64,000 bases of DNA from Dehalococcoidia bacterium (GTDB lineage Bacteria; Chloroflexota; Dehalococcoidia; Lucifugimonadales; CAZENU01): the NCBI GenBank assembly GCA_965222125.1, contig CBDCTC010000004.1, positions 130,299-194,298 of the forward strand. Direction: 5' to 3'. This document shows positions 3,367 to 55,538 of this stretch, one piece after another (the stretch's first letter is position 1; each line of letters begins with the position of its first letter). The notes under the pieces were generated by a model, which saw only the letters and a list, made by a program, of their open reading frames with translations, made no database searches and was not told where the DNA came from. Made by a program: the position numbers and the translations under genes.

Positions 3367-3425
3367 CCCGCCCCGGTAGGGCTCTCGGGCCGTACGTCCA
3401 GGGAGCCCCCTCTCTCTCGACCAGG

Positions 3426-3697
3426 CCTCTTGCATAACCGTCATTCCCGCGACACGGAGACGTTTGCACAACCGTCATTCCCGCGAAAGCGGGAATCTAG
3501 GGGTGAGTTGTCCAGCTAAGAAATCTACGTATCTCCACGACATTCGTCTCCCACAAGGGGAGTTGCGCAAAGGTCTCCGGACGCGGGAAGCAACGGCGAG
3601 GGGTGGGGATGGGTTCCCGTCTCCACGGGAACGACGGGCGGAGGCGGCGCACCCACACCGTCATTCCCGCGAGGGAAGTTACGCCAAGGTCTCTCGA
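3426..3697. repeat. REP-like repeat cluster (at least 4 units plus the 48-bp hairpin module)
   Basis: CCGTCATTCCCGCG occurs at 3438-3451, 3472-3485 and 3658-3671. A perfect hairpin ATTCCCGC-GAAA-GCGGGAAT lies at 3477-3496. The module at 3599-3646 is identical to 2029-2076. The cluster lies between convergent genes. Confidence 0.8.
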
Positions 3698-9611: not shown

Positions 9612-9890
9612 TTGATGGTCGCGTGGTATGATCAGCACTTCGGCTATCGGATCGAGCCCTACGGATCGGTCGAGGACGCTATCAAGTCGTGGTCCGCTAC
9701 AGCCCCGTGCGTTGGAGTCCGCTATGGGCACGGCAAGGTTACGGTCTACGCGCCGTACGGTCTGGCCGATTTGCTGGGGATGGTTGTCAGGCCAAACAAG
9801 GTCCAGGTCACGAAAAAGGTCTACCTGGAGAAAGCCAAGCGATGGACACGCGGTTGGCCAGACCTGCAGATCGTGGCAATGGTGAGTTGA
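9612..9890 (+). CDS. Hypothetical protein following the NTase
   Basis: 92-aa ORF starting 10 nt after the NTase stop, with a TTG/ATG start. No recognisable motif and no HEPN Rx4-6H motif. Confidence 0.35.
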   Translation: MMVAWYDQHFGYRIEPYGSVEDAIKSWSATAPCVGVRYGHGKVTVYAPYGLADLLGMVVRPNKVQVTKKVYLEKAKRWTRGWPDLQIVAMVS

Positions 9891-10906: not shown

Positions 10907-11944
10907 CTATCCCGCCGGGACCTTCCGGTAGATCTGGAACCTGTGGCGCCGGTGCTCCAGGACATAGAGGCGCTCCTCGTCGTCCAGGATCAGCGAGGTC
11001 AGGCCCCAGAAGTAGGGCTCGATCTGGGACGACTCGTTGTTGGGGTCCTGGAGGTGCTCCGGCAGGGGAGAGTAGAGGTCGGCGATCGCCCTGGTGTCCC
11101 GCTCGTCGACGTTGGACTCGAAGAAGTCCTCGGTCCACTTCGTCAGCGTGGCCTGGCCCCGCAGCTTCTGCACGAATGCGCCATCCGGGTCCAGGACCTG
11201 GACGCGGTGGTTGCCCCAGTCGGCGATGTACATGTACCCGTCGGCGTCGACCACCACGACGGACGGCCGGTCGAGCTGGCCGTCCCCGCGACCCGACTCG
11301 CCGAAGCTGGCGACGAAGCTGCCATCCGTGGTGAATTTCTGGATCCGGTCGTTGCGCCAGTCTGCGACATACACGTTGTCCCGCGAGTCTACGGTGACGC
11401 CCCAAGGCATGTTGAACTGACCCTCGCCGCCGCCGAAGTCGCCCCACTGCCGCTGGTACTCTCCCTCGGTCGTGAAGACCTGGACGCGGTGGTTGTGCTG
11501 ATCGACGACGTATGCGTTGTCGGCCGAGTCGAAGGCGATGCTGCACGCGCCGTTCAGCTCGCCGTCGCCGCTGCCGTGCTCCCCCCACTCGCCGACGAAG
11601 CCGCCGTCCGTCGTGTAGACGAAGACCTTGTCCTTGGCTTCGTCCGCGACGTAGAGCCGCTCCCGGCCGTCGAATACCATGTCTGAGGGGGCCTGGAACT
11701 TCTGGTCGCCCTCACCCTCGCCGTACCAGGTCGCGAACTCGCCCAGGTAGTCCTCGTCGAAATTGCAGATCGTTATGCGGATAAGGTTGCGGTCCACGAC
11801 GAAGAAGCGGCCATCGGAACTGCGGGCCATCGCGTACGGAACGAGAAAGCCCCGCCCGCGGGCCACGTTGCTGATCATGCCGATCGTCTTGACGTATTCG
11901 AGGGTGAACGGCGGCGCCGTTGCCGTCGTGCTCACTGAGGTCAC
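10907..11944 (-). CDS. NHL-repeat beta-propeller protein (copy 1)
   Basis: 345 aa with repeated blades ...YVVDQHNHRVQVF..., ...YVADWRNDRIQKF..., ...YIADWGNHRVQVL.... No N-terminal signal peptide. Confidence 0.85.
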   Translation of the reverse strand: MTSVSTTATAPPFTLEYVKTIGMISNVARGRGFLVPYAMARSSDGRFFVVDRNLIRITICNFDEDYLGEFATWYGEGEGDQKFQAPSDMVFDGRERLYVADEAKDKVFVYTTDGGFVGEWGEHGSGDGELNGACSIAFDSADNAYVVDQHNHRVQVFTTEGEYQRQWGDFGGGEGQFNMPWGVTVDSRDNVYVADWRNDRIQKFTTDGSFVASFGESGRGDGQLDRPSVVVVDADGYMYIADWGNHRVQVLDPDGAFVQKLRGQATLTKWTEDFFESNVDERDTRAIADLYSPLPEHLQDPNNESSQIEPYFWGLTSLILDDEERLYVLEHRRHRFQIYRKVPAG

Positions 11945-12001: not shown

Positions 12002-13408
12002 CTAGGCGAACTGGTACTCCGGAGACGACGCTATGAGGCTGAGCAGCTCGCCGACGCGCTTTTCGGACTCCTCGTCCCGGCCGTCTCCGAGACGCACGCC
12101 CCCTCGTCTTGAGACGTGTTCGATCAGCGACTCCCGGGTCTCGGCGGAGGCCGGCACCGGCCCTGCGAGATCCAGGCAGCCGTCGACCGTCTCTTCCGGC
12201 GACAGCGTGCCGCCGTTGCTCGAGCCCAGCCTGTCGATGATCGCGCGTACCCCCGGCTGCGACACGTCGCTCAGCTCCTTGGCGGCCAAGTTGACCCGCT
12301 CGACCACCGATCCGCTGTAGAGCCACTCCGAGCCCTCGTGCCATCCCTCAACCGATGGAGGCCGCAGGAGGCCCTGGCCCATGAAGTTGGAGGCGTCGAA
12401 CCGGCCGCCGTCGCTCGCCTTCGGGGTCTGGCAGCTCCCGGCCATGTGAATCGCGCCGACCACGAGCTCGACCGGGTTCTTGACGCGGGCGAACCGCGCG
12501 GCGTCCGACATGAAGTAGTCGGAGTTGAACATCGTACGCAGCACGGCGCGTATCTCGAACTCCGAGTCGAAATAAGACCGGACCATGTCGTCGACGAGCT
12601 CCTCGCCCTTCTCGCCGATCTCATCGGCGACGAAGTACTGGAACAGCCGGGTGCTTATGAACCGGGCGGTCGCCTCCTGTCGGACGATGATGTCGACCAC
12701 GTCCTCGCCGTTGAAGTTGCCCGTCTCTCCGAGGAACGTCTTCTCGCCGTCATCGTGGTCCTCGGGCCGGTACTCGAAGTGCCACGCGATGCGCCCGTAG
12801 GGCGAGAAGGAGTCCTTGTTGGCCTTGACAGCCATGTACTCGGCGTTGGCGATCGTCCAGCCCGTAAAGGCCCGGGCGCACTCTTTGACGTCCTGCTCCG
12901 TGTACGAGCCGATGCCCATGGCGAACAGCTCGAGCAGCTCGCGACCGTAGTTCTCGTTGACCGAGCCCTTCTTGTTGTCGTTGTTGTCCAGCCAGAAGAT
13001 CATCGCCGGGTCGCGGGACAGCTCGATCAGCAGGTCGCGGAAGCTGCCCAGCGAGTTCTCCCGGAACTTCTGGATCTGGTTGAGCTGCGACCGCGCCTGG
13101 TTGCCCTTCGCGTAGCCGACGGCGAACAGCCCGTGCCAGAAGAGCGTGATCTTCTCCTCCAGCGGGTTGCTCGTCGTAAGCATCCGGTAGGTCCAGTCGA
13201 TGGCTCCGCCTCCGGCGCCCTCGTCGTTCGCGAGGAAGACCCGTCGGATGATGTCCTCGGGCATCGTGTTCGGCTCGCCGGGATAGAGCAGGTCCTCCAC
13301 AGTCGCGTCGTAACCCCTGGCGACTTTGGCTTCGAGCTCGTCCCGCGTCGCGCCGAAGCCGGCGCGGCGCATCAGATGTGCCATCAACGCTATCCGGTCG
13401 TCTGCCAT
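12002..13408 (-). CDS. DUF1800-family protein (copy 1)
   Basis: 468 aa. The N-terminus ...LMAHLMRRAGFGATRDELE... and ...FWHGLFA..., ...MIFWLDN..., ...NENYGRELLELF are characteristic of DUF1800. No signal peptide. Confidence 0.85.
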   Translation of the reverse strand: MADDRIALMAHLMRRAGFGATRDELEAKVARGYDATVEDLLYPGEPNTMPEDIIRRVFLANDEGAGGGAIDWTYRMLTTSNPLEEKITLFWHGLFAVGYAKGNQARSQLNQIQKFRENSLGSFRDLLIELSRDPAMIFWLDNNDNKKGSVNENYGRELLELFAMGIGSYTEQDVKECARAFTGWTIANAEYMAVKANKDSFSPYGRIAWHFEYRPEDHDDGEKTFLGETGNFNGEDVVDIIVRQEATARFISTRLFQYFVADEIGEKGEELVDDMVRSYFDSEFEIRAVLRTMFNSDYFMSDAARFARVKNPVELVVGAIHMAGSCQTPKASDGGRFDASNFMGQGLLRPPSVEGWHEGSEWLYSGSVVERVNLAAKELSDVSQPGVRAIIDRLGSSNGGTLSPEETVDGCLDLAGPVPASAETRESLIEHVSRRGGVRLGDGRDEESEKRVGELLSLIASSPEYQFA

Positions 13409-13429: not shown

Positions 13430-14563
13430 CTAGGCGGCGAAAAGGTCGAAGGCCTCGTACCTGCCGTTGACTATCGGCGCGGCGTCGAGGCTGAGCCACT
13501 GCTCCAGGACGGACGTGTAGGTGGAGCGGAAGTCGTTGTTGTAGTGCAGGTCGCCCTCGAGCTGGTCGTCATCGGCCAGAGACGGGTACTCGCCGTACAT
13601 GCCGCCCTTGACCGAGTCTCCGATGAGCATCGCCATGCCGCCCGAGCCGTGGTCGGTCCCCGAGCCGTTGTCCTTGATCCGGCGGCCGAACTCCGAGTAC
13701 AGGAACATCACCGTGTCCTCGTTGCGGCCGTGCTCGACGAGGTCGTCATAGAAGTCGCCGACGGCCGGCGCCACCTCGTTCCATAGCATCTCGTGCTTGA
13801 ACAGCTCGCCGGAGTGCGTGTCGAAGCTGCCGTGCTGCGTGAAGTAGACCCGCGTTCCGAAATCCGCGAACATCACCTGCGCCGCGCTCTTGAGGGACTG
13901 CGCCATGGGGTTGGCCGCGTACTCGACAGTCGACTCGTACGTCCCGGGCGCGGTCCTCAGGATGTCCGCTCCCCGGAGCGCGTCGAGGCCGGTCTGGCCC
14001 AGGAAGCCCATCACGGCATCCTTGCCCTCCGCCCCGCCATACATCTTGCCGAACGTCTCCAGCGCGTACTCCCTCAGCGCCTGGTCCTGCATGTCCGGGA
14101 ACAGGCCATACGTCTCCAGGTTGCCGACCGAGGCCACGGGCACTCCCGGGCAGCCCATCGCCCGCGGCAGGCCGCGGCCGAAGTTGACGCCTGCCAGCAC
14201 GTTCTCGCCGTTGGGGTCGATGTCGCGAATCGCCCTGCCGAGCCAGCCCTCGGTGCCGACCTCCTCGGCCAGCGCGGTGTGCCAGACGTCCATCGACCTG
14301 AAGTGGGACCGGTTCGGGTTCGGGTATCCGATGCCGTTGATGATGGCGACCTTGCCCTCGTCCCACAACCGTTTGATCGGCTCCAGGCCCGGCCTGAAGC
14401 CGACCTGGTCGTCGATCTTGATCACCGATTCGGGATCGATCGCGATCTCGGGGCGGGAGTCGTAGTAGAGCCCGTTGCCGTAGGGTACCAGCGTGTTCAT
14501 GTAGTCGTTTCCGCCGGACATCTGGACGATGACTAGGTTGCGGTCCCGGTTCGTGGTGGTCAT
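13430..14563 (-). CDS. DUF1501-family protein (sulfatase/alkaline-phosphatase-like; copy 1)
   Basis: Track ORF trimmed to ATG 14563, which has GAGGAGG upstream. Motifs include ...VIVQMSGGNDYMNTLVP..., ...GIGYPNPNRSHF..., ...YSEFGRR...GSGTDHGSGG. No twin-arginine or hydrophobic leader. Confidence 0.85.
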   Translation of the reverse strand: MTTTNRDRNLVIVQMSGGNDYMNTLVPYGNGLYYDSRPEIAIDPESVIKIDDQVGFRPGLEPIKRLWDEGKVAIINGIGYPNPNRSHFRSMDVWHTALAEEVGTEGWLGRAIRDIDPNGENVLAGVNFGRGLPRAMGCPGVPVASVGNLETYGLFPDMQDQALREYALETFGKMYGGAEGKDAVMGFLGQTGLDALRGADILRTAPGTYESTVEYAANPMAQSLKSAAQVMFADFGTRVYFTQHGSFDTHSGELFKHEMLWNEVAPAVGDFYDDLVEHGRNEDTVMFLYSEFGRRIKDNGSGTDHGSGGMAMLIGDSVKGGMYGEYPSLADDDQLEGDLHYNNDFRSTYTSVLEQWLSLDAAPIVNGRYEAFDLFAA

Positions 14564-14793: not shown

Positions 14794-15807
14794 CTACACG
14801 GTGTCCTGCGTCGGTACTCTGGGCGGTGGGGCCATCTGTGTCTCGTCCAGGGGGATGGCGTCCTTTTGGTAGACCTGCACGCGGGAGTGGCCGCTGTCGA
14901 TCACGACCATGCGGCCCCGCGTGTCGACGGTCAGCGAGGTGGGCCCAATGAAAGATTTCTCCGGCTCGAGGTCGGCCATCGAGCGGAGCCTCAGGACCTT
15001 GGCGTTCGCCAGAGTGTACTGTCGGGCCGACTTCGACAGCGTCCCGTCCCCCGTGAAGCTCTGAAGGTAACGGCCGCCGCGGTCGAACATCTGGACCCTG
15101 TGGTTGCCCAGGTCTGCCACGTACACGTCGCCATCCCCATCCGCGGCGATGCCGGCAGGCCGGTTGAACTGGCCGGCGCCCGCGCCCGTACCGCCGAATT
15201 CTCGAATGAAACGCCCCTCAGAGTCGAACTTCTGCACGCGGTCGTTGCGCCAGTCGACGACATACACGTCGCCGACCGGGTCCACGGCCATCCCCCACGG
15301 CATGTTGAGCTGGCCTGGCCCGGCGCCGAAGCTGCCCCACGCCGACAGAAATCGCCCGTCCTTCGTGAAGCGCTGGACGCGGTGGTTGAGCGTGTCGGAG
15401 ACGTACAGGTTCCCCTCGAGATCGAGCGCGATTCCCGAAGGTCCGTTCAGCTCCCCATGTTCTTCTCCGCGCTCGCCCCAAGACCACAGGAGCCTGCCGT
15501 CGCTGGTGATGACCGTAATGCGGTGGGCCGCCTCGTCGGAGACGTAGATGTTGTCCTCGGCGTCCATGGCGATCGCCACCGGCCACTGGAAGGCGGCCTC
15601 CGGTGCGCCTACCGGGCCCAGGAAATCGTCGTCCCACGTGAGCTTCCTGATCGGTGAGGAGCCCGGGAGCCGGCCAAGGACGTAGACGTTGTCGTCGGAG
15701 CCCACCGCCACGTCGACCGGCGCGTCGGTGACGCGCCTCATTCCCAGAGTCTTGACGTACGGAAACCCCGCCCTTAGCAGCGCGTACGGCATCGCCATGT
15801 CCGTCAC
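14794..15807 (-). CDS. NHL-repeat beta-propeller protein (copy 2)
   Basis: 337 aa with blades ...YVSDTLNHRVQRF..., ...YVVDWRNDRVQKF..., ...YVADLGNHRVQMF.... Paralog of 10907..11944. Confidence 0.85.
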   Translation of the reverse strand: MTDMAMPYALLRAGFPYVKTLGMRRVTDAPVDVAVGSDDNVYVLGRLPGSSPIRKLTWDDDFLGPVGAPEAAFQWPVAIAMDAEDNIYVSDEAAHRITVITSDGRLLWSWGERGEEHGELNGPSGIALDLEGNLYVSDTLNHRVQRFTKDGRFLSAWGSFGAGPGQLNMPWGMAVDPVGDVYVVDWRNDRVQKFDSEGRFIREFGGTGAGAGQFNRPAGIAADGDGDVYVADLGNHRVQMFDRGGRYLQSFTGDGTLSKSARQYTLANAKVLRLRSMADLEPEKSFIGPTSLTVDTRGRMVVIDSGHSRVQVYQKDAIPLDETQMAPPPRVPTQDTV

Positions 15808-15829: not shown

Positions 15830-16978
15830 CTATCTGAAGGGACTGATCTGCTCGAAGGCTCCGGAGACGATGGGCACGGGGTCCAGACCCATCCACTGCT
15901 CTATGAGCGTCCCATACACTCCCCGGAAGTCGATGGTGTGCTTCAGGTCCTCGCCGCGCTCCCACCGGGCCGGGTCCAGGGGCGGATACTCGGCGTACAG
16001 TCCGCCCTCGACGCGGTCGCCGATCAGGAAGGCCCCGCCGCCGGACCCGTGGTCCGTGCCGGTGCCGTTGTCCTGCATGCGTCGGCCGAACTCGGTGAAG
16101 ACCAGCATTATGACCTCTTCGGACGCGTCGTGGTCCCGGAGGTCCTGGAAGAAGTCCATGATCGCCGCGGACAGGTCTGTCCACAGGGTCGCGTGAGTCG
16201 GCAGCTCGTTCGCGTGTGTGTCGTATCCCCTGGTGCCGCCGTGGATGACGTAGAAGATGCGCGTTCCCAGGCCCGCCAGGTGTACGCGCGCCACGTCCCG
16301 GAGGCTCTGCGCGATGGGGTTCGCGGCGTACTCCACCTCGGACGCGTACTGTCCCGGTACGTCCTTGAGGATGTCGGCGCCTCCCATGACGTTGACGACC
16401 GTCTGCCGGATGTAGTCCACCACCGGGCCAGTCCCGATTGCGGGGGCGTACATCTCTTTGAATACCCGCATCGCGTCGTTACGCTGGGTCTCCTCCGCTA
16501 TCGGCGTCATCAGGCCGTAGCTCTCGAGGTCGCCTACCGACGTAACCGGCACGTCCTGGGCAGCCATCGCGCGCGGCAGGCCCCTGCCGAAACTGACGCC
16601 GGTGAGTACGTTCTCTCCCCTGGGGTCGAGGTCCCTGATCGCCTTTCCCAGCCAGCCCTCGTAGACGAGCCGCTCGGGCTCGCACGTATGCATAATGTCC
16701 ATGCCGCGGAAGTGGGAGCGGTCGGCGTTGGGGTATCCGATGCCCTGGACGACCGCCACGTTTCCGCTGTCGTACATCTCCTTGAAGAGAGCGGCATTCG
16801 GGTGAAAGCCGAGCGTGTCGTTGATCGGCAGCACTTTGTCCTCGGGGATGCGCACCGTCGGGCGCGTGTCGTGGTACACGCCGCTGGTGAACGGGATCAG
16901 CGTGTTCATGAAGTCGTTGCCGCCGCTCTGCTGGACGACGACGAGGACGGGCGGCTTACCGTTTCCGTTGACTCTCAT
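15830..16978 (-). CDS. DUF1501-family protein (copy 2)
   Basis: The 794-aa track ORF (15830..18214) was trimmed to ATG 16978, which has GGGAGG upstream. Upstream of that point the frame overlaps the real DUF1800 gene. Motifs include VVVQQSGGNDFMNTLIP, GIGYPNADRSHF and FTEFGRR...GTGTDHGSGG. Confidence 0.85.
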   Translation of the reverse strand: MRVNGNGKPPVLVVVQQSGGNDFMNTLIPFTSGVYHDTRPTVRIPEDKVLPINDTLGFHPNAALFKEMYDSGNVAVVQGIGYPNADRSHFRGMDIMHTCEPERLVYEGWLGKAIRDLDPRGENVLTGVSFGRGLPRAMAAQDVPVTSVGDLESYGLMTPIAEETQRNDAMRVFKEMYAPAIGTGPVVDYIRQTVVNVMGGADILKDVPGQYASEVEYAANPIAQSLRDVARVHLAGLGTRIFYVIHGGTRGYDTHANELPTHATLWTDLSAAIMDFFQDLRDHDASEEVIMLVFTEFGRRMQDNGTGTDHGSGGGAFLIGDRVEGGLYAEYPPLDPARWERGEDLKHTIDFRGVYGTLIEQWMGLDPVPIVSGAFEQISPFR

Positions 16979-17040: not shown

Positions 17041-18414
17041 CTATGCGAACTGGAACTCCGCGGTGGAGACGATTAGCTGAAGCATGCGAACGGCCCTGGC
17101 GGTACTGCTCTCGCGATCGGAGTCGGTCTCGAAGCTCAGCGGGCCGCCGGCCCGGGCGTGCTCCAGCAGCGCGGTCCTCGTGACGTTCTCGACCGCCATC
17201 GGGCCCACCAGATCGAGGCATCTGTCGACGAACTCCTCCGGCTGAAGGGGAGACGCTTTGTCGAGCCGGCCCACTATCACAGCGACGCCCGGCTTGGCGG
17301 GATCTCCGAACTCTTTGACGGCGAAGTTGATGCGCTCGGTCATGGCGCCGCCGTCTATCCACTCGCGGCCGGTGTGCCAGCCCTCCACCGTGGGCGGGTT
17401 CATCAGCTCCTGCCCCATCGTCATGGCTGCGTCGGCGTACGCGCCGATGCCCGGGTGGGGGAACCGGTGCGTGCCCAGCAGCTTGACAACTCCGGCCACC
17501 AGCTCGGCCGGGCTCTTGACCCGCTTGAAGCGCGCCTCCTTGAAGAACTCGGAGTTGAACAGCACCCTCATCATGGCCCGGACCTCGCCGCCGGTGTCCA
17601 CGTAGGTCTCGACCAGCGCGTCGATGGCGTCCGGGTCCTGGGGAGGTTCGAGCTGCCACGCCGGCACCTGCGGCTCGTCGGCCACGAAGAAGTTGTACAG
17701 GTGCCGCGAGAGGAACTTCGCGGTCGCCTCCTGCCTCACGATGATCTCTATGATCTGCTCGCCGTTCAGGTTGCCGCTGTGGCCCAGGAAGGTCTTGAAG
17801 CCGTTGTCGTGCAGCTCCTCGCGGTAGACGAAGTCCGACCTGGTCTGGTTGGTGGGGTACTCGGGGATCGGCTGTGTTATCGTCCAGCCTGTGAACGCCC
17901 GGGCCGCGCTCTTGATGTCGTCCTCTGTGTAGTTGCCGACGCCCATCGAGAAAAGCTCCAGCAGCTCCCGCCCGTAGTTCTCGTTCGGCTGGCCATTCAC
18001 GTTCTCGTTGTTGTCGAGCCAGAAGATCATGGCCGGGTCCCGCGACAGGTCGGTCAGGATGGTCTTCATGTCGGAGAGGCCGTTTCTCCGGAACATGTCG
18101 ATCTGGTCGGCCACGTGACTGGCCTTGGTGTTGGCCGTCGCGAAGACGTGGTGCCAGAAGAGCGCCATCTTCTCTTCGAGCGGACGCCGGGAGTTGACCA
18201 TCCGGTATATCCACTGGTTCTTGCTGCCGAACCTGATACCGAAGTAGCGCTCGGCGATATCTTCGTCAATGTCGGGGAAACGCTCCGGGTGGAGGAGGTC
18301 GTCGACGACAGCCTCGTAGCTCCTAGAGGACAGGAGCTCAAGCTCGTCGCGGGTGGCGCCGAACCCGGCCCGGCGCATCAGATGGGCGATCAGATCAAGG
18401 TCGGACTCCTGCAC
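17041..18414 (-). CDS. DUF1800-family protein (copy 2)
   Basis: 457 aa. Motifs include ...LIAHLMRRAGFGATRDELE..., FWHHVFA, MIFWLDN and NENYGRELLELF. Paralog of 12002..13408. Confidence 0.85.
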   Translation of the reverse strand: MQESDLDLIAHLMRRAGFGATRDELELLSSRSYEAVVDDLLHPERFPDIDEDIAERYFGIRFGSKNQWIYRMVNSRRPLEEKMALFWHHVFATANTKASHVADQIDMFRRNGLSDMKTILTDLSRDPAMIFWLDNNENVNGQPNENYGRELLELFSMGVGNYTEDDIKSAARAFTGWTITQPIPEYPTNQTRSDFVYREELHDNGFKTFLGHSGNLNGEQIIEIIVRQEATAKFLSRHLYNFFVADEPQVPAWQLEPPQDPDAIDALVETYVDTGGEVRAMMRVLFNSEFFKEARFKRVKSPAELVAGVVKLLGTHRFPHPGIGAYADAAMTMGQELMNPPTVEGWHTGREWIDGGAMTERINFAVKEFGDPAKPGVAVIVGRLDKASPLQPEEFVDRCLDLVGPMAVENVTRTALLEHARAGGPLSFETDSDRESSTARAVRMLQLIVSTAEFQFA

Positions 18415-23214: not shown

Positions 23215-23244
23215 GGATTCCCGCGTTCGCGGGAATGACGGAGG
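23215..23244. repeat. REP-like palindromic unit (GGATTCCCGCGTTCGCGGGAATGACGGAGG)
   Basis: Perfect ATTCCCGCG-TT-CGCGGGAAT palindrome with the GACGG tail, in an intergenic region. Confidence 0.75.
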
Positions 23245-23280
23245 TGGGGGATTTGGGAAACGGGAACAGGAGGACTTAGC

Positions 23281-24361: not shown

Positions 24362-25420
24362 CTACTCTACCCGGTGGTAGATGAACGGCGACCCCGACAG
24401 GATTTCCAAGTCCTGCTCGGTCAGATAGGTCTCTGGATAGTCCCAGAAGTACCCCAACCACATCAGGGCCCAGGTGTCGCACGTCTCTAGTCCTTCGTCG
24501 CATCCCGCTGGGTGACGGAGCCCAAGGGCGTGACCTAGCTCGTGGGCAAGACCGCCTATCCAGCCGTATGTGCCTCGCGGGCCGGACGCGCACTGTTCGT
24601 AGTTGTCGGGGTCCACGAGGCCCATCAGGTCGCCCCTGTGGACTATTGTGATTCCCTGGCCCCCCTGCCCCAGCGTGCTCGTGCCGTCGCACCTGAACTT
24701 CACGTCGGCGTAGATGGCCCATACGTACTCCGGTGATTGGCGTCTCGGAGCCGGCTGGCAGCCCGCCAGATCGGACAGAACCCGCGAATATCCCCGCTCG
24801 GCCTCGTAGTGCGTCGATGGGTTCTCGAGCGAGCATACCTGCGGCACGTCGCCCACGATTCTGAATGTGGGGCCGTCGAGTTGCTCCGCGTACCAGCACT
24901 GGACGTGATAGGCCGCGTACCTGATCGCCTCTCGGTAGTGGTCTTGCATTTCGCGGTCAGACGGCACGGCGTAAATGACGCGCACGGCCGGGCCGGGCGT
25001 CGGGGTGACGGTTGGCGTCAGACATGGAATCGGCGTCGCGGTCGGCGTTGGCGTCGCGGTTGGGGTAGCAGTCGGCGTAGGCGTCGAGGTAGGAGTCGGA
25101 GTGGCGGTCGGCGACGGCGTAGGGGTCGGCGACGGAGTCGGAGTGGCAGTTGGCGTCCGAGTTGGCGTCGCGGTTGGGGTAGCCGGCGGCGTAAGGGTCG
25201 GCGTGCGCGTCGGGGTCGGGGTTGACGTGGGTGTCGCGGTCGGGGCGACCGTCGCAGTTGGCGTGGCTGACGGCGACGGTGTAGCTGTCGGCACAGACGT
25301 AGCGGTGACAGCTACCGCCAGCGGGCTGGGGTGCTCGACCACGTCGTCGCCGCCGCAGGCAAACGACACCGCAGCCGACACGTAGAAAAGCGCGAGCAGA
25401 GTCCTCGTGGGTTGCCACAC
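24362..25420 (-). CDS. Secreted zinc metalloprotease-like protein with a long Pro/Thr-rich linker
   Basis: The N-terminal hydrophobic leader ends ...AVSFACGG. An ~85-aa (T/S/A)P repeat linker follows. The C-terminal domain carries [11 protein letters not shown] (HExxHxxGxxH, metzincin-type). Confidence 0.75.
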
Positions 25421-47437: not shown

Positions 47438-48802
47438 TTAGCGCAGGTCGCGCAGCCGCTTGTGCGTGAAGAGCATCGCCAGCGAGCACAGCGTGAGCAG
47501 CAGGCCCATGGATCCGACCGTCAGCTGGCTGCCCAGTACGTCGATCGCCACCCCGGATACGAGCAGGCTGGCGGGCAACAGACCGGAGGCCATGTAGTAG
47601 ACGCTCATGACTCGGCCCAGGTAGGCGTCTTCCACTTCCTCCATGAGGATCGCGTTGGAGTGAGTCCTGCGCGCGGCGTCCGTCAGTCCCACGACTACGA
47701 ATAAGGCCAGACCAGCATAGTAGTAGGGGAGCACGGCCACCCCCAGGAGCGCCAGGCCGCCGCACAGGGCCGCGCCGATGAGCACGAGCCCCGGCCTCCA
47801 TCGCTTCGTGCCCGCTATGGCTACCGATCCGATCAGCGAGCCGAGTCCCAACGCGCTCAGGAGCAGGCCGAACGCTCCCGAATCGCGACCGTATACCTCG
47901 ACCACCATGACGGGCAGCAAGAACGGCAGCGACTGCACGAGAAGCAGCGTTACGACGACCATCGTCACTACGCCGACGAGCAAGTCGCTGCGAAACACGT
48001 AGGCGATCCCGGATCGTATGTCCGCCATCATCGGCGACCCGGTGGGCTCGACCTTGCCGACGCCCCTGCTGATCATAAACGTGAAGGCGAGCGCGGCGAA
48101 CCCCAATCCTGAGCCGACGAAGTACGCACCGTCGGGCCCAACGGTCGCGTACAGGATGCCGCCCGCCGCGGGGGCCAGCAGCGCCTGCGCGCTCATTCCG
48201 GACGCCTGGAGCGCCACCGCGTTCGCAACGCGCCGACGCCCCACCAACGACTTGACAAGAGCGTTCCGCGCCGGCATGGCGAACGAGAAGGTGGTGCCGT
48301 ACACGACGGCCGCGAGCAACAGATAGCCCCAGGTAATCGTACCCGTCGCGATCGACACTGCCACGAGCAGTCCTGTCAACGCGGTGATGGCCTGGAACAC
48401 GATGACCAGCCGCCGACGCTCGATCCGGTCCGCGATCGCGCCGCCTATGGGCGACAGCGCCAGAACGGGGGCGACTTGTGCCGAGCTCACAAGCGCCAGG
48501 ATCTTGCCGGACACGGTTATGTCGTATACCAGGAAGCTGCGAGCCGCCATCTGGATGAGCATCCCGGCCATCATCAACTGGGTGCCGATCCAGAGATATC
48601 GGAAGTCCGGGACCTCGAGGGCGATCAGCGCCCTCGGCCACCCGGTCCGGCTGGATGTGCCTCGGCCGAGTTCGGCGGCGCGACCGGAGTCGTCGGCTGG
48701 GCTGGCGGCTGCCGGCGGTTCGGCGTTGCGTCCCACTCTTGGCTCCGTGCGCCGTGGTTGGCCGGAGGCGAAAGAGGCCCCCAGGCTACGCGCGGCTCTC
48801 AT
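47438..48802 (-). CDS. MFS transporter
   Basis: Multiple hydrophobic helices and ...FRYLWIGTQL... near the N-terminus. The start is uncertain: ATG 48802 lies inside a repeat element, and GTG 48736 (GGAG upstream) is an alternative. Confidence 0.75.
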   Translation of the reverse strand: MRAARSLGASFASGQPRRTEPRVGRNAEPPAAASPADDSGRAAELGRGTSSRTGWPRALIALEVPDFRYLWIGTQLMMAGMLIQMAARSFLVYDITVSGKILALVSSAQVAPVLALSPIGGAIADRIERRRLVIVFQAITALTGLLVAVSIATGTITWGYLLLAAVVYGTTFSFAMPARNALVKSLVGRRRVANAVALQASGMSAQALLAPAAGGILYATVGPDGAYFVGSGLGFAALAFTFMISRGVGKVEPTGSPMMADIRSGIAYVFRSDLLVGVVTMVVVTLLLVQSLPFLLPVMVVEVYGRDSGAFGLLLSALGLGSLIGSVAIAGTKRWRPGLVLIGAALCGGLALLGVAVLPYYYAGLALFVVVGLTDAARRTHSNAILMEEVEDAYLGRVMSVYYMASGLLPASLLVSGVAIDVLGSQLTVGSMGLLLTLCSLAMLFTHKRLRDLR

Positions 48803-48950
48803 CGGCCGAAACGGATGGTACTCCTTGGTGGTGTTACGGCCGCGCCCGCATTCCCCTCGTGGAGCCTTCGCCGTTTCGCCGTCTTCGGCCCAGTCTGAGC
48901 GCGACTACGGCGGGCGTCGCGATGATACCACGCGGCCTGGGCAGGCGGTA
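48768..48950 (+). repeat. ~180-bp intergenic element, copy A (homologous to 50733..50911); the ends are complementary
   Basis: By-eye alignment to copy B: GCGAAAGrGGCCC..GGCTACGmGCGGC.CTCATC.GCCGAArCGGAwGGTACTC...TTCGCC.TTCGCCG...CCACGC.GCCTGGG.AG..GGTA. The 5' CCCAGGC..CGCG..GG..TCATCG can pair with the 3' CGATGA..CC.CGCG.GCCTGGG. Confidence 0.7.
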
Positions 48951-49185
48951 TCGAGTCGGCCCGAGTTGTTGTCGCGCCTATTCCCCTTTCGTCCGCGGAC
49001 CGAGTCCTCCAACTTTGCCTGCCTGCCCGGACCCCGCAGCCGGCCGACGGTGATGATCGGCTTTGACGTGGGCCATGCCGGACACGGCGTCCCACACAGT
49101 ACATCCTGTTACAATCCCGCCCGACGTGGCCAGGCCTGCGAACGGGTCGACTTCGACTTACCAGGCCTTGCATGGGAGATGGGCG

Positions 49186-50658
49186 ATGTTAGTTCCCAAG
49201 GTGATGAGCACGCAGCACCCGGACAACGCGGCGCCGGCCCCTTTTGCCGACGATAGAGGAGTCCTGAAGGGGGACGGCGAGGTGGACGAGGCCGTCGACG
49301 TGTTCGCCCTGGGTTGCGACGAGCAGATGTGGGACTCTGAGGGGAAGGAAGCCGACAGCCAGGTCGTCCGAAAGCTCCTCACGGGATACCCCGACTTCTT
49401 TCAGGGCGATCTCCAGCTCGGCCGCGACATCGCGCTGACGCTGCGCGTGCCCAATCCTCGCATCGAACACGACATGCGTAAGTCCATGGTCGAGGCGCTT
49501 CAGAGCATCCCATCGGCCTGGGACATGGCGCATGGCTTCTACGGCGACGAGCACGTCCCCCCGATTCAGGAGGTCATCCTCCCCTTCACGACTTCCGCCG
49601 AAGAGATTTCCCTGGTAGAGGAGTACTATCGAAAGATTATCGTCGGCCAGGAAGACCGGAAGCTGCTCGGCGGCCAGTCGGTCAGCGACTGGGTGGGGGA
49701 GTTCTTCCCAAAGAGTATCCGTGTGATCCCGCTCATCGAGGACATGGAACACCTGCTCCATTGCGACCAAATCGTCGAGGAGTACGTGCGGCAGAGAGAT
49801 CTTTCCGGCCAGCGAGTGTTCCTCGCCCGGAGCGATCCGGCGCTCAACTACGGCGTCGTGGCGACCGAGCTGGTCCTGAAGGTCGGGCTGCGCCGCCTCC
49901 ACGAGCTCGAAGGGCGGTTGGGGCTGCCTCTGTTTCCGATTATCGGGGCCGGTTCCGTGCCCTTCAGGGGCCACCTGACGCCCGTCAACGTCGAGCGCGT
50001 TCTGATCGAGTACCCCAGCGCCCATACGTTCACGGTCCAGTCCGCCTTCAAGTACGACTATGACAAGGAGACTGTCCGCGACGGCATCGCGCAGATCCGC
50101 GCCCACGAGCGCGGCGAGCCCATGACCGTCGCACTCGGTCCCGCGCTCAAAATAGTAGACAAGACCACCGCCGAGTATCAGGCACATGTACAGCGGTTAA
50201 CCGACGTCATCAGGGCCGTGTCCGCTCACGTGCCCAAGCGACGCGAGCGCAAGATGCACGTCGGCCTTTTCGGCTACGGACGCTCCCTGGGCGGCGTGGG
50301 TGGAGTGACCCTCCCGCGCGCCATCGGGTTCGCCGCTTCGATGTACTCCATAGGCGTCCCGCCGGAGCTGCTGGGCCTGGCGTCCCTGACCCAGGATGAC
50401 CTCGCTTTCGTGCGGGAGGTCTACCCCAGTCTGGACGGCGATCTCCGCGCGGCCCTGCGCTTCGCCAACGAAGGTCACGTGAAGGAATTGCTGGGCGAAC
50501 CGTACTCGAAGCTACTCGGCGAGTTCACCGACGAGATAGATCGAGTCCACGAGGGGCTGACCAGTGCGATCTGGGCCAGCATCAACAGCGGCAACACGTC
50601 CGTGAACGTCCTCCGCTACGTCGAAGAGGCCGCCCACCTTCGCCGCTCTCTGGGCTAG
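49186..50658 (+). CDS. ppcA: Archaeal-type phosphoenolpyruvate carboxylase
   Basis: Trimmed to ATG 49186. MLVPKVMSTQHPDNA... is the hallmark N-terminus of atPEPC, and the ~490-aa length fits. Confidence 0.8.
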   Translation: MLVPKVMSTQHPDNAAPAPFADDRGVLKGDGEVDEAVDVFALGCDEQMWDSEGKEADSQVVRKLLTGYPDFFQGDLQLGRDIALTLRVPNPRIEHDMRKSMVEALQSIPSAWDMAHGFYGDEHVPPIQEVILPFTTSAEEISLVEEYYRKIIVGQEDRKLLGGQSVSDWVGEFFPKSIRVIPLIEDMEHLLHCDQIVEEYVRQRDLSGQRVFLARSDPALNYGVVATELVLKVGLRRLHELEGRLGLPLFPIIGAGSVPFRGHLTPVNVERVLIEYPSAHTFTVQSAFKYDYDKETVRDGIAQIRAHERGEPMTVALGPALKIVDKTTAEYQAHVQRLTDVIRAVSAHVPKRRERKMHVGLFGYGRSLGGVGGVTLPRAIGFAASMYSIGVPPELLGLASLTQDDLAFVREVYPSLDGDLRAALRFANEGHVKELLGEPYSKLLGEFTDEIDRVHEGLTSAIWASINSGNTSVNVLRYVEEAAHLRRSLG

Positions 50659-50732
50659 AGGGCCAGGTCACCGCATTTGGCGGTCGCTTGCCCAGCGAGG
50701 ACGGCTGCGAGCGCGAGTGGCTAGCGGCAGCC

Positions 50733-50911
50733 GCGAAAGGGGCCCGGGCTACGAGCGGCGCTCATCCGCCGAAGCGGAAGGTACTCGCAGGTGTTGCAAC
50801 CCGGACCCGTATTCCCTGGTGGGGCTTTCGCCATTCGCCGACCGCTTCCCCGGGCGGAGCCGGGTGCGGCGACTGGGCCGCGACAATGCCACGCAGCCTG
50901 GGTAGATGGTA
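50733..50911 (+). repeat. ~180-bp intergenic element, copy B (homologous to 48768..48950)
   Basis: See copy A. It has the same orientation and lies between ppcA and aroC. Confidence 0.7.
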
Positions 50912-51047
50912 GCATAGACGCCACACGATAACCGTCCAGAGTCCAGGCTTCCGCGAGTCCGCTCACCCCGAGTAACGCCATCGGCGCATTCGGATTGAGG
51001 AGCGCGCGCGAGGCCTCACGACACGTGGACAGATACACGATAGGGCT

Positions 51048-52136
<1,089 letters not shown>

Positions 52137-52530
52137 GCGCCACCAACTCCGGGCTCAGGAATCGCGGGTGCCAGACGCGTGCTGGGTCGAGATCAGATAT
52201 AGAGTAGCTGACCTTGCATCTCGTCTGCGGTAAGCGTGTTGAGCAGCACGAACAACCGGCGAGCTAGAAACTCGGACGGAAACCCCGATTCTTCCCAAGC
52301 CGTCGTTGGCTTACCGTCGACTGTCTATGTAATAGTGGGTTTGTGAAACGCAATTCATATATTCCCATGTCGTATAAGACCGTAATACGTCTGCTTTGGG
52401 TAGTGCGAAACCCAGCCAATGACTTTCCGGCCATACTTCTAGGGGAACCTCTGGACAACTGAGTGTGTCTCGTATGTGATGGACAGTAAGGGGACTTTCA
52501 GAGGTGGTTTTTCCTCTTGTGGTGTGTCGA

Positions 52531-53623
52531 TAGAGGTTTTGTGGTACTGAAACGGCTCTGCTAAGGCGTATCTCCGCTCGTTGTTCTGGTTTGGGCGCAC
52601 TTCGCCCATGTCAGGATGCCAAGTATCCCTCTGTCGTTATCAAGTTCGTCATCCCCAGCAGCAACATCAGCCGTTGTGTGTTCTTTGCCAGCCCACGGTA
52701 GCGCACCTTGGCGTAGCCAAAGTGCCGCTTCACGTACAGGAACAGATGCTCCACCTTCGCCCTGGTCGACGCCTTGCGCTTCTCCATAAGCGCCTCATAG
52801 CTTCCCGGCTCCAGTTGCCGACGTCTCCCGGGCCTCATCGCCACCAACCACTCGACATCCGACTCTCGATTCTCCAATCGCTTGTCGACTCCCTGATACC
52901 CCGCATCGCCCCACACCCGATTCTCTCCACCGTGCAGCAGCTGGTGAGCCTCCGTCACGTCATGAACGTTCGCAGGTGTCGTTCTTACGCTATGTACTAC
53001 TCCCGTCTCAGCGTCCGCTCCGATGTGTACCTTCATCCCGAAGTGCCACTCATTCCCCTTCTTCGTCTGACGCATCTCAGGGTCTCGCTTTCCTGAACGA
53101 TTCTTCGTCGACGATGGCGCCTCAATAATGCTCGCGTCCACGATCGTTCCCTCCCGAAGCCGCAGTCCCTGGGACTCCAGATGACGGTTGATCTCCTCGA
53201 ACATACCTTGCCCCAACTCGTGCTCTTCCAGCAGATGGCGGAAGTTCAGAATCGTCGTCTCGTCCGGGAGCGGGCCCGACAGCCTCAACCCTACGAACCG
53301 CCTCACCGACTCGACCTCATAGAGCATGTCTTCCATTCCAGGATCACTGAGGTTGTAGAACAACTGCACACAGTGTATCCGCAGCATCGCAGACAACTCA
53401 TAGGGGCGCCGGCCACGGCCCGCCTTGGGATAGAACCGGCGGAAGCGCTCTTCGAGCCGTTCCCACGGGATCAGACCATCCATGCGCTCAAGGAATATCT
53501 CCCGACGGGTCTTGCGCTTCTTGCTCTCGTATTCCAACTCGGCAAATGTTGGCTGGTCCATCGTGTCTTCACCCCAAACATTTCTGTCTTCCTAGTGGCA
53601 TAGTACTATGCCACAACACACTA
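52531..53623 (-). mobile_element. IS5-family insertion sequence (boundaries approximate)
   Basis: The transposase CDS is 52611..53561. The candidate imperfect terminal repeats are TAGAGGTTTTGTGG (52531-) and the reverse complement of CCACAACACACTA (-53623). The local GC content is clearly lower than the flanks. Confidence 0.55.
52611..53561 (-). CDS. IS5-family DDE transposase
   Basis: 316 aa. Motifs ...FAELEY..KKRKTRREIFLERMDGLIPWE..., ...GTIVDASIIEAPSSTKN..., ...HFGMKVHIGAD..., ...WGDAGYQG... and ...KVEHLFLYVKRHFGYAKVRYRGLAKN match the IS5/InsH-like pattern. Confidence 0.9.
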   Translation of the reverse strand: MDQPTFAELEYESKKRKTRREIFLERMDGLIPWERLEERFRRFYPKAGRGRRPYELSAMLRIHCVQLFYNLSDPGMEDMLYEVESVRRFVGLRLSGPLPDETTILNFRHLLEEHELGQGMFEEINRHLESQGLRLREGTIVDASIIEAPSSTKNRSGKRDPEMRQTKKGNEWHFGMKVHIGADAETGVVHSVRTTPANVHDVTEAHQLLHGGENRVWGDAGYQGVDKRLENRESDVEWLVAMRPGRRRQLEPGSYEALMEKRKASTRAKVEHLFLYVKRHFGYAKVRYRGLAKNTQRLMLLLGMTNLITTEGYLAS

Positions 53624-53851
53624 GGCTTGTTCAGAGTGTCCCTAGATCGTCGTTCGGTCCGGGCGACTGGCGCGACAGAGGCGGGGAGTACGTACCATAT
53701 TGTAGCAAGTGTGTGGCCCAGAGCGAGACCTCGCCGGGGTCGAAGCTTCTGGGAGACGTTGCGGTCAGCACCGACCCCACCGGTCTGATCGCGGCTCCGA
53801 CGACCTGCCGATCGGGTCTGGTCACTCTCTAATTCGTGCTAAAGCGGTTCC

Positions 53852-55538
53852 TCAGGACACGATCAGCCCCTCCTGAGGCTGTGTCCAGGGCAGATTGTAG
53901 ACAAACGCGATCTGCGGCGCGCGCGGTATCAACATTTCTCCGAAGGGCACGTCGATGACCACGGGCGCCTTGCGTTGCAGGGCGAGCGGAATCAACGTTC
54001 CCAGCTCCAGGGGGTCGTTTGCCCTCATGCCGACTGCGCCGAACGACTCGGCGAACTTGACGAAGTCCGGGTTGTGCAGGTCGGTCCCGTACGTTCCGCC
54101 AAACATCTCATTCAAGTCGCGGGCAACGTTGCCGTAGGAGTCGTTTCTGAAGACCACGACTACTACGTTGATCCCGTACTTGACCGCAGTAGCGAGCTCG
54201 ACCGCGTTGAACATGAACCCCCCGTCGCCGGCCATGCAGACCACGGGGCGGTCGGGCCTGGCCACCTTCGCGCCCAGAGCGGTCGGGAAGGCGTAGCCGA
54301 GATTGAACGAGTAGCCGGAGTCGACGTACGTCTTTGGGCGGCTCACCTTGTAGTGGGTGCGGGCGTAGTAGCCGAACTGCGTGACGTCCCAGATCACGAA
54401 GGCGTCCTCTGGAATCGCGTCTTGTATCGCCTCCAGGACGGCGTACTGGGGCTCCTTGAGGCGGATGTCGTAGTAGGCTATGAGGCTGCGGGCCGCTGCG
54501 ACCGCTTCCGCGGGTGACGAGCGCTCCCCGGCCCCGGTCTCTATCAGGAGCGGGATCAGGGCTTCGGTCGTGGCTTTGGCGTCGCCGTGGAGGGGTATGG
54601 TGTTGGACTGGACCCTCGTGAGCTCAGCGTCGTCTATGTTGATGTTCACCAGAGTGGACGACTCTCCGGCGGGATTGCCCAGCGAAAAGCGTGCGCCGAT
54701 ACCTATCACCACGTCCGCGGACTGCATCACTTCGTAGAGCCGGTTCATCTCCTGTCTGTCGCCCCGGGGGCTGAAACAGGAGCCGTAAGACAGCGGATGG
54801 CTGTCCGGTATGGTTCCCTTGCCGCCGCTGGAGGTAACAACGGGTATGTTCGTCGACTCCGCCAGCTTGACGAGGGCCTCTTCTGCGTCGGACCTCGCGA
54901 CTCCTCCGCCCGCGAATATCAGTGGCGAGCGAGACCTGGCGATGATCTTGGCGGCTTCTCTCAGGTCTTCCTGGCTTGGGACGATTCGTGAGATGCGGGC
55001 AGGATTTCGCAGCTCGACCTCTTCTCGCTCCACACCGGTGTCAGGCGGAATCTCAAGTAGAACGGGACGAGGACGGCCGGTGCGCATCTGCCTGAACGCT
55101 TCGAACACGGCGTCCGGGATCTCCCGGGGCCGGGGCGCAAGTCGCTGCCACTTGGTCACGGAGCGCACCGCGTCCGCCTGGTTGGCGATTTCGTGAACGG
55201 CCCCCAAGTTCTTGCCGATCGCGCCGCGCGGGATCTGGCCCGCAACGAGCAGCACGGGCGTGGACCGAGAGTATGCGTTGGTCAAACCGGCCGCGGCGTT
55301 GTAGAGACCGGCACCCGGCACCACCAGCGCTACCCCCGGCTTTCCCGATGCGCGCATAGCCGTCTGCCATGTACGTCGTGGCCTGTTCGTGGCGGGTCGT
55401 GATCATGCGAATGCCCGGCTCGTCCCGCAGCGCGGCGACAATGCCGTAGATCTGGATACCTGGGATCCCGAATACGACTTCGACGCCTTCCCTCACGAGC
55501 GATTTCACCAGGGCTTCGCCCCCGCTCATTTTGACCAT
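53852..55538 (-). pseudogene. Thiamine-pyrophosphate-dependent enzyme (acetolactate synthase large-subunit-like), frameshifted
   Basis: The N-terminal part is in ORF 55053..55538 (MVKMSGGEALVKSLVREGVEVVFGIPG...TTYMADGYAR). The continuation ...ASGKPGVALVVPGAGLYNAA...GDGGFMFN... is in ORF 53852..55357. The frames switch at the GCGCGC run near 55349-55356. The total span is 1687 nt, which is not a multiple of 3. Confidence 0.8.

Follow-up and report, generated by a model that had tools for sequence, protein, structure and literature searches.

Duplicates of a native MFS–aroC intergenic region, encoding a candidate small hairpin RNA, probably flank an inserted ppcA gene in Dehalococcoidia

In the genome of a Dehalococcoidia bacterium, ppcA, the gene for an archaeal-type phosphoenolpyruvate (PEP) carboxylase, is bracketed by two diverged direct repeats, which raises the question of what these repeats are and how the gene came to lie between them. 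The window analyzed here is a 64,000-nt stretch of contig CBDCTC010000004.1 (GCA_965222125.1); coordinates are window positions unless another locus is named, and L-numbers (L002, L007, etc.) designate the related Dehalococcoidia loci or contigs compared with it. The gene order in the window is MFS (a major facilitator superfamily transporter gene, minus strand), copy A of the repeat, ppcA (plus strand), copy B, and aroC (chorismate synthase, plus strand). An earlier note on this DNA had left three options for the repeats, namely a family resembling miniature inverted-repeat transposable elements (MITEs), a structured cis-regulatory or stabilizing RNA, and recombination substrates flanking a horizontally acquired gene. 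The comparisons described below led us to a reading that takes up parts of the last two and that we consider probable: the repeats are duplicates of a native divergent MFS–aroC control region that came to flank an inserted ppcA, the region encodes a stand-alone small RNA, and its two copies have since degenerated in a complementary manner.

A blastn self-comparison of the window aligned copy A, the MFS-proximal duplicate (48741–48950), with copy B, the aroC-proximal duplicate (50703–50911), at 72% identity over 218 columns (E 8.6e-21). This agrees with the earlier description of two direct repeats of about 180 bp that lie in the same orientation, align over their whole length and are roughly three-quarters identical, and it extends the repeats leftward by about 30 nt. 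The four sequence blocks listed earlier as shared were all found in both copies; one of them, the 40-nt degenerate block GGCTACG.GCGGC.CTCATC.GCCGAA.CGGA.GGTACTC, had exactly two matches in the 64 kb, against 0 expected, and neither a pattern scan nor a covariance-model search of the 64-kb window found a third copy. The left end of copy A adjoins the ribosome-binding site and start codon of the MFS gene, and its right end breaks inside a promoter-like palindrome, box 1, described below.

Next, we turned to the state of this region in related genomes. When one genome from each GTDB species was scanned with a degenerate pattern, the element turned up in five Dehalococcoidia metagenome-assembled genomes and nowhere else credible, with one pattern match in each related genome, and further contigs were fetched via aroC homologs. 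Across 15 related Dehalococcoidia loci, the element occupied a single fixed position in each genome, always just upstream of aroC, and in all relatives the RNA core described below lay 120–240 nt upstream of that gene. The arrangement of the window (MFS, copy A, ppcA, copy B, aroC) recurs in L007 and L013, and L015, L016, and L032 likewise carry ppcA and two copies of the region. Conversely, relatives without ppcA at this place carry a single copy, which answers a check proposed in the earlier note: the element lies singly and directly upstream of aroC in L002, L006, and L009, and one copy is likewise present in L017, L019, L020, L021, L034, and L037. In an aroC tree, the six ppcA loci (the window, L007, L013, L015, L016, and L032) formed one clade with the single-copy L019 as its sister, and the nine non-redundant loci outside the ppcA clade were all single-copy. 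In L019, the single region is collinear on one side with copy A, over its left flank with the MFS start and ribosome-binding site, and on the other with copy B, over its core and its right flank with box 1 and aroC. Because the ppcA clade is monophyletic and its sister is single-copy and collinear, these comparisons show that the ancestral state was one region between the divergent MFS and aroC genes, and that a single insertion of ppcA left about 210 bp of this region on either side of the new gene.

What does the duplicated region encode? Across loci whose flanks otherwise cannot be aligned, two features are conserved, the first being a core of about 75–80 nt that forms a long bulged hairpin when read on the minus strand and the second a set of palindromic boxes described below. 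In the window, the intact core lies in copy B (50732–50814, minus strand), where the covariance model matched with 100.4 bits (E 6e-25). The core consists of a 9-bp GC-rich basal stem, P1 (GGGYCCGGG/CCCGGGCCC), a 5′ bulge of the form UUG(n)AACAC, an inner helix of 17 bp that carries small bulges on its 3′ side, and a variable loop. In copy B, the outer stem P1 pairs 50800–50808 with 50740–50748 (minus strand), the conserved 5′ bulge reads UUGCAACAC, the inner helix is bulged, and the loop is UUCG. A U-rich tail directly follows P1 in 13 of the 14 homologs aligned, spanning 50733–50739 on the minus strand of copy B (RNA ...CCCC-UUUCGC) and reaching U5–U7 in L002, L019, L034, and L037.

The structure was tested on a MAFFT alignment of 14 distinct homologs. 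Standard pairs filled 97.8% of the 364 pair cells, compared with 33–45% in controls in which the partners were slid, and five pairs showed compensatory changes on both sides, P1 accounting for one of them and the apical stem for three. The core also contained 38 invariant columns, including the 9-nt bulge and the small bulges, despite a divergence of the flanking intergenic sequence beyond alignment. The strand of the RNA could be told from the pairs themselves: 32 G·U cells on the minus strand would be A·C on the plus strand (98.1% versus 88.8% pairing), and the single-sequence minimum free energy (MFE) z-score was −2.9 to −5.3 on the minus strand (−2.9 for copy B of the window) and 0.0 on the plus strand. 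The core thus displays the general signs of a structured non-coding RNA, that is, conserved structure, compensatory changes and G·U strand asymmetry, in a set of related sequences in which 13 of the 26 pairs are invariant. The indels of 1–2 nt within the core argue that it is not coding, as the earlier note had held for the repeat.

A search against Rfam 15, which the same note had called for, matched the repeat to no family: there was no gathering-level match anywhere in the 64-kb window, and with a permissive cutoff of E ≤ 10, only unrelated matches of 11–15 bits were obtained for the window copy and L021, and none for L002. A literature search did not find a description of this RNA. Resemblances to the signal recognition particle RNA, 6S RNA, the hammerhead, the K-turn, and TRAP sites were rejected by eye only, as the defining motifs were absent. 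Together, these results point to the core as a candidate small hairpin RNA encoded on the minus strand and absent from Rfam 15. The structured RNA suspected earlier is therefore upheld as a conserved hairpin, but one that lies on the minus strand, occupies the left 40% of the repeat, and is intact only in copy B.

This hairpin is distinct from the helix that had first drawn attention to the repeats. Complementary termini (CCCrGGCTACG.. and ..CGC.GCCTGGG) do exist in both window copies, but the helix that they would close is not a conserved RNA structure among the relatives: its 3′ partner falls in the spacer that separates the two promoter-like boxes, boxes 1 and 2, and is different in L032, L019, L017, L009, L002, and L021. 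Because of this position and this lack of conservation, the pairing of the termini is incidental, and the real basal helix lies within the left 80 nt of the repeat. When the whole repeat of about 190 nt was folded, the plus strand was no better than shuffled sequences; the minus-strand MFE of the whole repeat was rejected, since that fold used the non-conserved termini helix.

Each region also contains one or two palindromic boxes with the consensus ATGnTAnCAT. Box 1 (ATGGTAGCAT; 50906–50915, both strands) is a putative extended −10 element that reads TGGTAGCAT on the plus strand, towards aroC, and TGCTACCAT on the minus strand, towards the RNA. It was found in all 15 loci (as a variant in L021), with TGnTAnnAT on both strands, 16–132 nt before the aroC ATG. 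Box 2, which resembles ATGATACCAT, lies about 23 bp further from aroC than box 1 in roughly two-thirds of the loci. In copy A, it takes the form TGGTATCAT (48922–48930, minus strand), a putative extended −10 directed towards MFS; in copy B, it is a decaying relic, TGGCATTGT (50883–50891, minus strand), which is lost altogether in copy B of L015 and L032. The window contains 12 occurrences of the motif TGNTANNAT (at 9624, 14631, 29273, 34332, 38590, 45308, 48922, 49107, 50906/7, 53699, and 61982), compared with 4.9 expected. Most of them closely precede the starts of open reading frames (ORFs), including ppcA, and the motif is probably the extended −10 promoter consensus of this lineage. As ATGGTAGCAT offers a symmetric −10 usable on both strands in all loci and belongs to a motif class enriched in the window, we infer that the boxes are pseudo-symmetric bidirectional promoters.

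Bidirectional promoters are defined by divergent start sites 7–25 bp apart; in the canonical form, the distance is 18 bp and −7T pairs reciprocally with −11A (Warman et al. 2021, cited through PMC10268837; PMC12825309). Box 1 is similar in its palindrome and in the start-site spacing of about 23 bp predicted from its geometry, which falls within that range, but its two hexamers share only 2 bp and depend on TG extensions.

The gene downstream of the RNA on the same strand is MFS_3 in most loci, an amidohydrolase gene in L020, and a MazE gene in L034; a convergent DUF3500 gene follows in L006 and, in the window clade, ppcA lies antisense. The same or related downstream genes, as would mark a riboswitch or another cis-acting leader, were thus not found across the loci. 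In L017, L021, and L037, the MFS gene has a −10-like hexamer of its own, 6 nt before an in-frame ATG and about 100–375 nt past the U-tract. As a side observation, leaders seem to be missing from several outgroup MFS genes, in which a −10 hexamer stands 6 nt in front of the ATG.

The fates of the two copies after duplication provided a further view of what is under selection. The copy B core is identical at 82 of 82 positions (100%) between the window and L007 and scores 100 bits by the covariance model, against a background of 86–92% identity in neighboring spacers and 96–98% in coding sequences. Copy A, conversely, holds a degenerate RNA relic (48767–48853, minus strand; 20 bits, E 0.011) that has lost the consensus fold in the window (z +1.3), is 75.6% identical to its L007 counterpart, which still scores 61 bits, and is deleted in L013 and, independently, in the L015/L016/L032 branch. 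The MFS ribosome-binding site, the leader and the minus-strand box 2 of copy A are kept in all six ppcA-clade genomes, box 2 even where the RNA core is deleted, and the duplication breakpoint severed box 1 of copy A. In copy B, box 1 and the RNA are retained and box 2 is decaying. The duplicated control region thus appears to have undergone complementary degeneration. Since the downstream neighbor varies, and since the gene-less copy B was preserved and the MFS-side copy lost, the RNA appears to act independently of the downstream gene.

Separately, the copy A cores of the window (48768–48853) and L007 (3514–3596) differ by 24%, compared with 8–14% in neighboring spacers. Selection to break a terminator before MFS, or gene conversion in L007, is a possible cause of this decay beyond the local background.

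We also examined where the inserted gene came from. ppcA has hundreds of homologs with 75–98% identity, and the only source-named cluster in the homolog list is a Dehalococcoidia bacterium PEP carboxylase. Its guanine–cytosine (GC) content of 63–65% shows no anomaly against flanks of 64–69%. In L033, an 82% identical ppcA homolog sits at another locus, beside insertion sequence (IS) transposase genes, and the sole non-coding sequence common to the L033 and window ppcA loci is the promoter-like TGTTACAAT (window 49104–49129). The gene's own putative extended −10, TGTTACAAT (49107–49115, plus strand), would have been carried with it and is kept in all ppcA-clade loci. Thus, by GC content, the homolog list and the L033 promoter, neither foreign composition nor nearest relatives outside the lineage were found for ppcA. 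The homologs, the matching GC content and the shared promoter at the L033 locus argue that ppcA relocated within the lineage with its own promoter rather than being acquired from far away. The acquisition proposed earlier would accordingly be right in that the repeats are a by-product of the arrival of ppcA between MFS and aroC, but not in its source, which appears native; nor do the repeats look like active recombination substrates, since 72% identity marks them as relics. As a side observation, two DDE_Tnp_1_4 transposase genes (3085–4615 in L033) lie 385 nt upstream of ppcA at that other locus, which hints at how the gene may have been mobilized.

In the explanation that we favor, ppcA with its own promoter would have inserted into the MFS–aroC region in the ancestor of one Dehalococcoidia clade, leaving on both sides a stretch that begins at the MFS ribosome-binding site and ends halfway through box 1. 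The ATGnTAnCAT boxes could fire both ways, and a minus-strand RNA, divergent from aroC, would start at box 1 and, where present, at box 2. This transcript would comprise a variable 5′ part followed by the highly conserved bulged hairpin of about 80 nt, the GC-rich basal stem and U-tract of which probably end it. After the duplication, box 1 and the RNA would have been retained in copy B, and the MFS ribosome-binding site, the leader and box 2 in copy A. The RNA most likely stands alone, because it always adjoins the aroC box 1 whatever lies downstream and because selection preserved the copy that has no gene downstream; its invariant bulge, UUGnAACAC, and its small bulges would then bind a protein or another RNA.

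Several points weigh against this explanation. Covariation is modest: the sequences are related, and half of the pairs never vary. For the middle helix, two registers fit equally well, so that only P1 and the apical stem are settled. The U-tail is only UUU in the window clade; a strict consensus scan of 48600–51100 found no promoter and no terminator, so the promoter and terminator claims rest on motif conservation, and the window hairpin, a GC-rich stem followed by UUU, is far larger than the model of the terminator scan. The sampling is narrow, all homologs coming from one Dehalococcoidia lineage (aroC 80–99% identical at the protein level). Pattern scans of metagenome contigs gave 0 matches at first and then three chance matches without P1, but this collection says little on distribution, having missed the JGI contig L019, which carries the pattern of the first scan. 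The duplication mechanism can only be proposed, with replication template-switching as one possibility. Finally, the distance from the U-tract to the MFS ribosome-binding site is only about 30 nt in L019 and in the ppcA clade, which leaves no room for another promoter; MFS in these genomes must therefore be transcribed through the hairpin, suggesting a role in cis.

This last point bears most directly on the chief rival, in which the 5′ leader of MFS_3 would carry the hairpin as a cis-acting attenuator that works like a riboswitch or under the control of a protein, the hairpin and U-tract halting transcription unless a signal permits read-through. We regard this rival as unlikely, although several observations speak for it: MFS_3 is the commonest same-strand downstream gene, the invariance of unpaired nucleotides is as in ligand- or protein-binding RNAs, and the two alternative helix registers would suit a switch. 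An attenuator is harder to reconcile with a downstream gene that gives way to amidohydrolase, MazE or a convergent DUF3500 gene, with the leaderless-type −10 hexamers that MFS possesses past the U-tract in L017, L021, and L037, and with the loss of precisely the MFS-side copy, through two deletions and one decay, when the copy lacking a downstream gene was perfectly conserved. The RNA may also do both jobs. A more specific and speculative version, to which we give a low probability, ties the hairpin to chorismate or aromatic metabolism as a ligand- or protein-responsive switch that gates an EntS-like MFS_3 exporter by read-through of P1 and the U-tract in L019 and the window lineage. The mutually exclusive helix registers, in which the 3′ GYAG pairs with CUGC or YUG, would then be the switching mechanism, and an RNA locked to the aroC promoter could also act in trans as the terminated product.

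Less probable than the attenuator is the proposal that the hairpin is a mere terminator or insulator of the divergent transcript from a symmetric bidirectional promoter. The GC-rich basal stem with its U-tract would fit, a palindromic box 1 would be expected to fire both ways, pseudo-symmetric promoters commonly give rise to divergent non-coding transcripts (PMC10268837), and in the ppcA clade such a hairpin would shield ppcA from antisense transcription. However, 38 invariant columns, with the 9-nt bulge among them, are not normal for a terminator whose flanks diverge.

Another route to the present arrangement would be a Campbell-type or site-specific integration of a circular element bearing ppcA and the RNA gene, or an ancestral ppcA followed by later deletion between the repeats. 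Direct repeats that include an RNA gene around an insert do resemble islands at tRNA or small-RNA genes, and ppcA of L033 sits beside IS transposase genes. Nevertheless, we consider this route doubtful. The interval between the repeats contains ppcA with its promoter and nothing else, neither an integrase nor other cargo, and the repeats form a mosaic that one crossover would not produce: the left flank, variable part and box 2 are native-like in copy A, and the core and box 1 are native-like in copy B. Because native-like segments alternate between the copies in this way, single-crossover integration was rejected, and the nine single-copy outside loci together with the monophyly of the ppcA clade argue against both forms of this rival.

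It is very unlikely that the element works on the plus strand, as a 5′ leader or riboswitch of aroC or a 3′ terminator of ppcA. Such a role would account for the absolute linkage to aroC and for the position of both copies upstream of a plus-strand gene, ppcA or aroC, the enzymes of which are both in PEP-related metabolism. On that strand, however, the G·U cells become A·C, the fold is no better than that of shuffled sequence, the covariance model scores only 12–22 bits, and there is an A-tract upstream and no U-tract downstream. Moreover, the core would lie outside the aroC mRNA, because the conserved extended −10 of box 1 stands between the two, down to 16–17 nt from the ATG. A MITE-like family or one of repetitive extragenic palindromic (REP) elements, as suggested by a non-coding repeat of about 200 bp with partly complementary ends in a window that has other repeat families, is hardly credible, since there are only two copies in the window, both at one locus and none dispersed, one syntenic copy at a fixed position per relative, no conserved inverted termini, and 0 matches in a viral-contig scan for the core pattern.

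The candidate RNA can also be set beside known systems. Terminator-ending bacterial small RNAs include those released from 5′ leaders or attenuators. Like them, the RNA predicted here is short and non-coding, ends in a 3′ hairpin with a U-tract, is intergenic, single-copy and syntenic and, in part of the clade, lies leader-like before a gene; it differs in that its conserved part, instead of a seed and a small terminator, is a single long bulged hairpin, about 26 bp in length, whose 9-nt bulge is invariant. The division of the control region recalls subfunctionalization in that each copy retained a different subset of the ancestral parts, but the duplicated unit is a 210-bp intergenic control region split by a gene and not a gene pair. 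With islands at tRNA, transfer-messenger RNA (tmRNA) or small-RNA genes, the locus has in common that an RNA gene lies within the direct repeats around the insert and is intact in one of them and degenerate in the other. The locus lacks an integrase, its repeat spans the whole RNA gene and the promoters rather than a 3′ fragment, and what was inserted is one housekeeping-type gene of the same lineage. MITEs and REP elements, too, are short non-coding repeats with some end complementarity, but here the locus is fixed, the element is single-copy in the relatives, and the inverted termini are not conserved.

The flanking genes are as the earlier note had named them. The MFS_3 transporter gene (47438–48736, minus strand) belongs to Pfam PF05977/PF07690 (MFS_3/MFS_1). 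Its start is likely the GTG at 48736, judging from the GGAG ribosome-binding site at 48743–48746 and from a start region kept in L019 and in the copy A flanks, and not the ATG at 48802; the latter begins the longest MFS ORF and falls inside a GAUGAG motif of the copy A RNA relic. The inserted ppcA (49186–50658, plus strand) is 98% identical to P0121/P0122, with PF14010 assigned on orthologs. The constant neighbor of the RNA, aroC, occupies 51048–52136 (plus strand; PF01264). An exact protein look-up of window ppcA and aroC found neither on record.

Just downstream of aroC lies an IS5-like transposase gene (PF01609 and PF05598; 52611–53561, minus strand), in a stretch (52000–54000) with a GC content of 57–59% compared with 64–69% in its surroundings. 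No such gene occupies this position in L015, L016, and L032, where aroC is followed by DUF433 and RecQ genes (L015 and L032) or by RecQ alone (L016). Elsewhere in the window, a separate short repeat family of GTCATTCCCGCG / CGCGGGAATGAC units (211–319, 1951–2105, 3416–3675, and 23218–23266), in regions that also include a 98-nt pair of 86% identity, is unrelated to the ppcA repeats, consistent with the earlier remark that these differ from the other repeat families. A set of three 141-nt tandem units is found twice, at a distance of about 3.9 kb (11174–11588 and 15067–15481), and blocks of 70–85% identity lie 2.4–5 kb apart (12659–13386 versus 17713–18392; 14237–14537 versus 16646–16946), which suggests a duplicated gene cluster with internal protein repeats. 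A 12/18-nt periodic array of 14 overlapping copies (24996–25307) is probably a low-complexity coding repeat.

For gene-bracketing repeats of this kind, the analysis corrects three misreadings, as a mobile element, as a plus-strand riboswitch and as a scar of horizontal transfer. The locus exemplifies how a gene insertion may duplicate a divergent promoter region, the copies of which then share the ancestral functions between them. To our knowledge, almost no non-coding RNAs have been described in uncultured soil Dehalococcoidia, and the hairpin adds a candidate structured small RNA family for this group. That one copy is 100% conserved and the other has decayed or been deleted, three times in all, amounts to a natural experiment that supports a function for this RNA.

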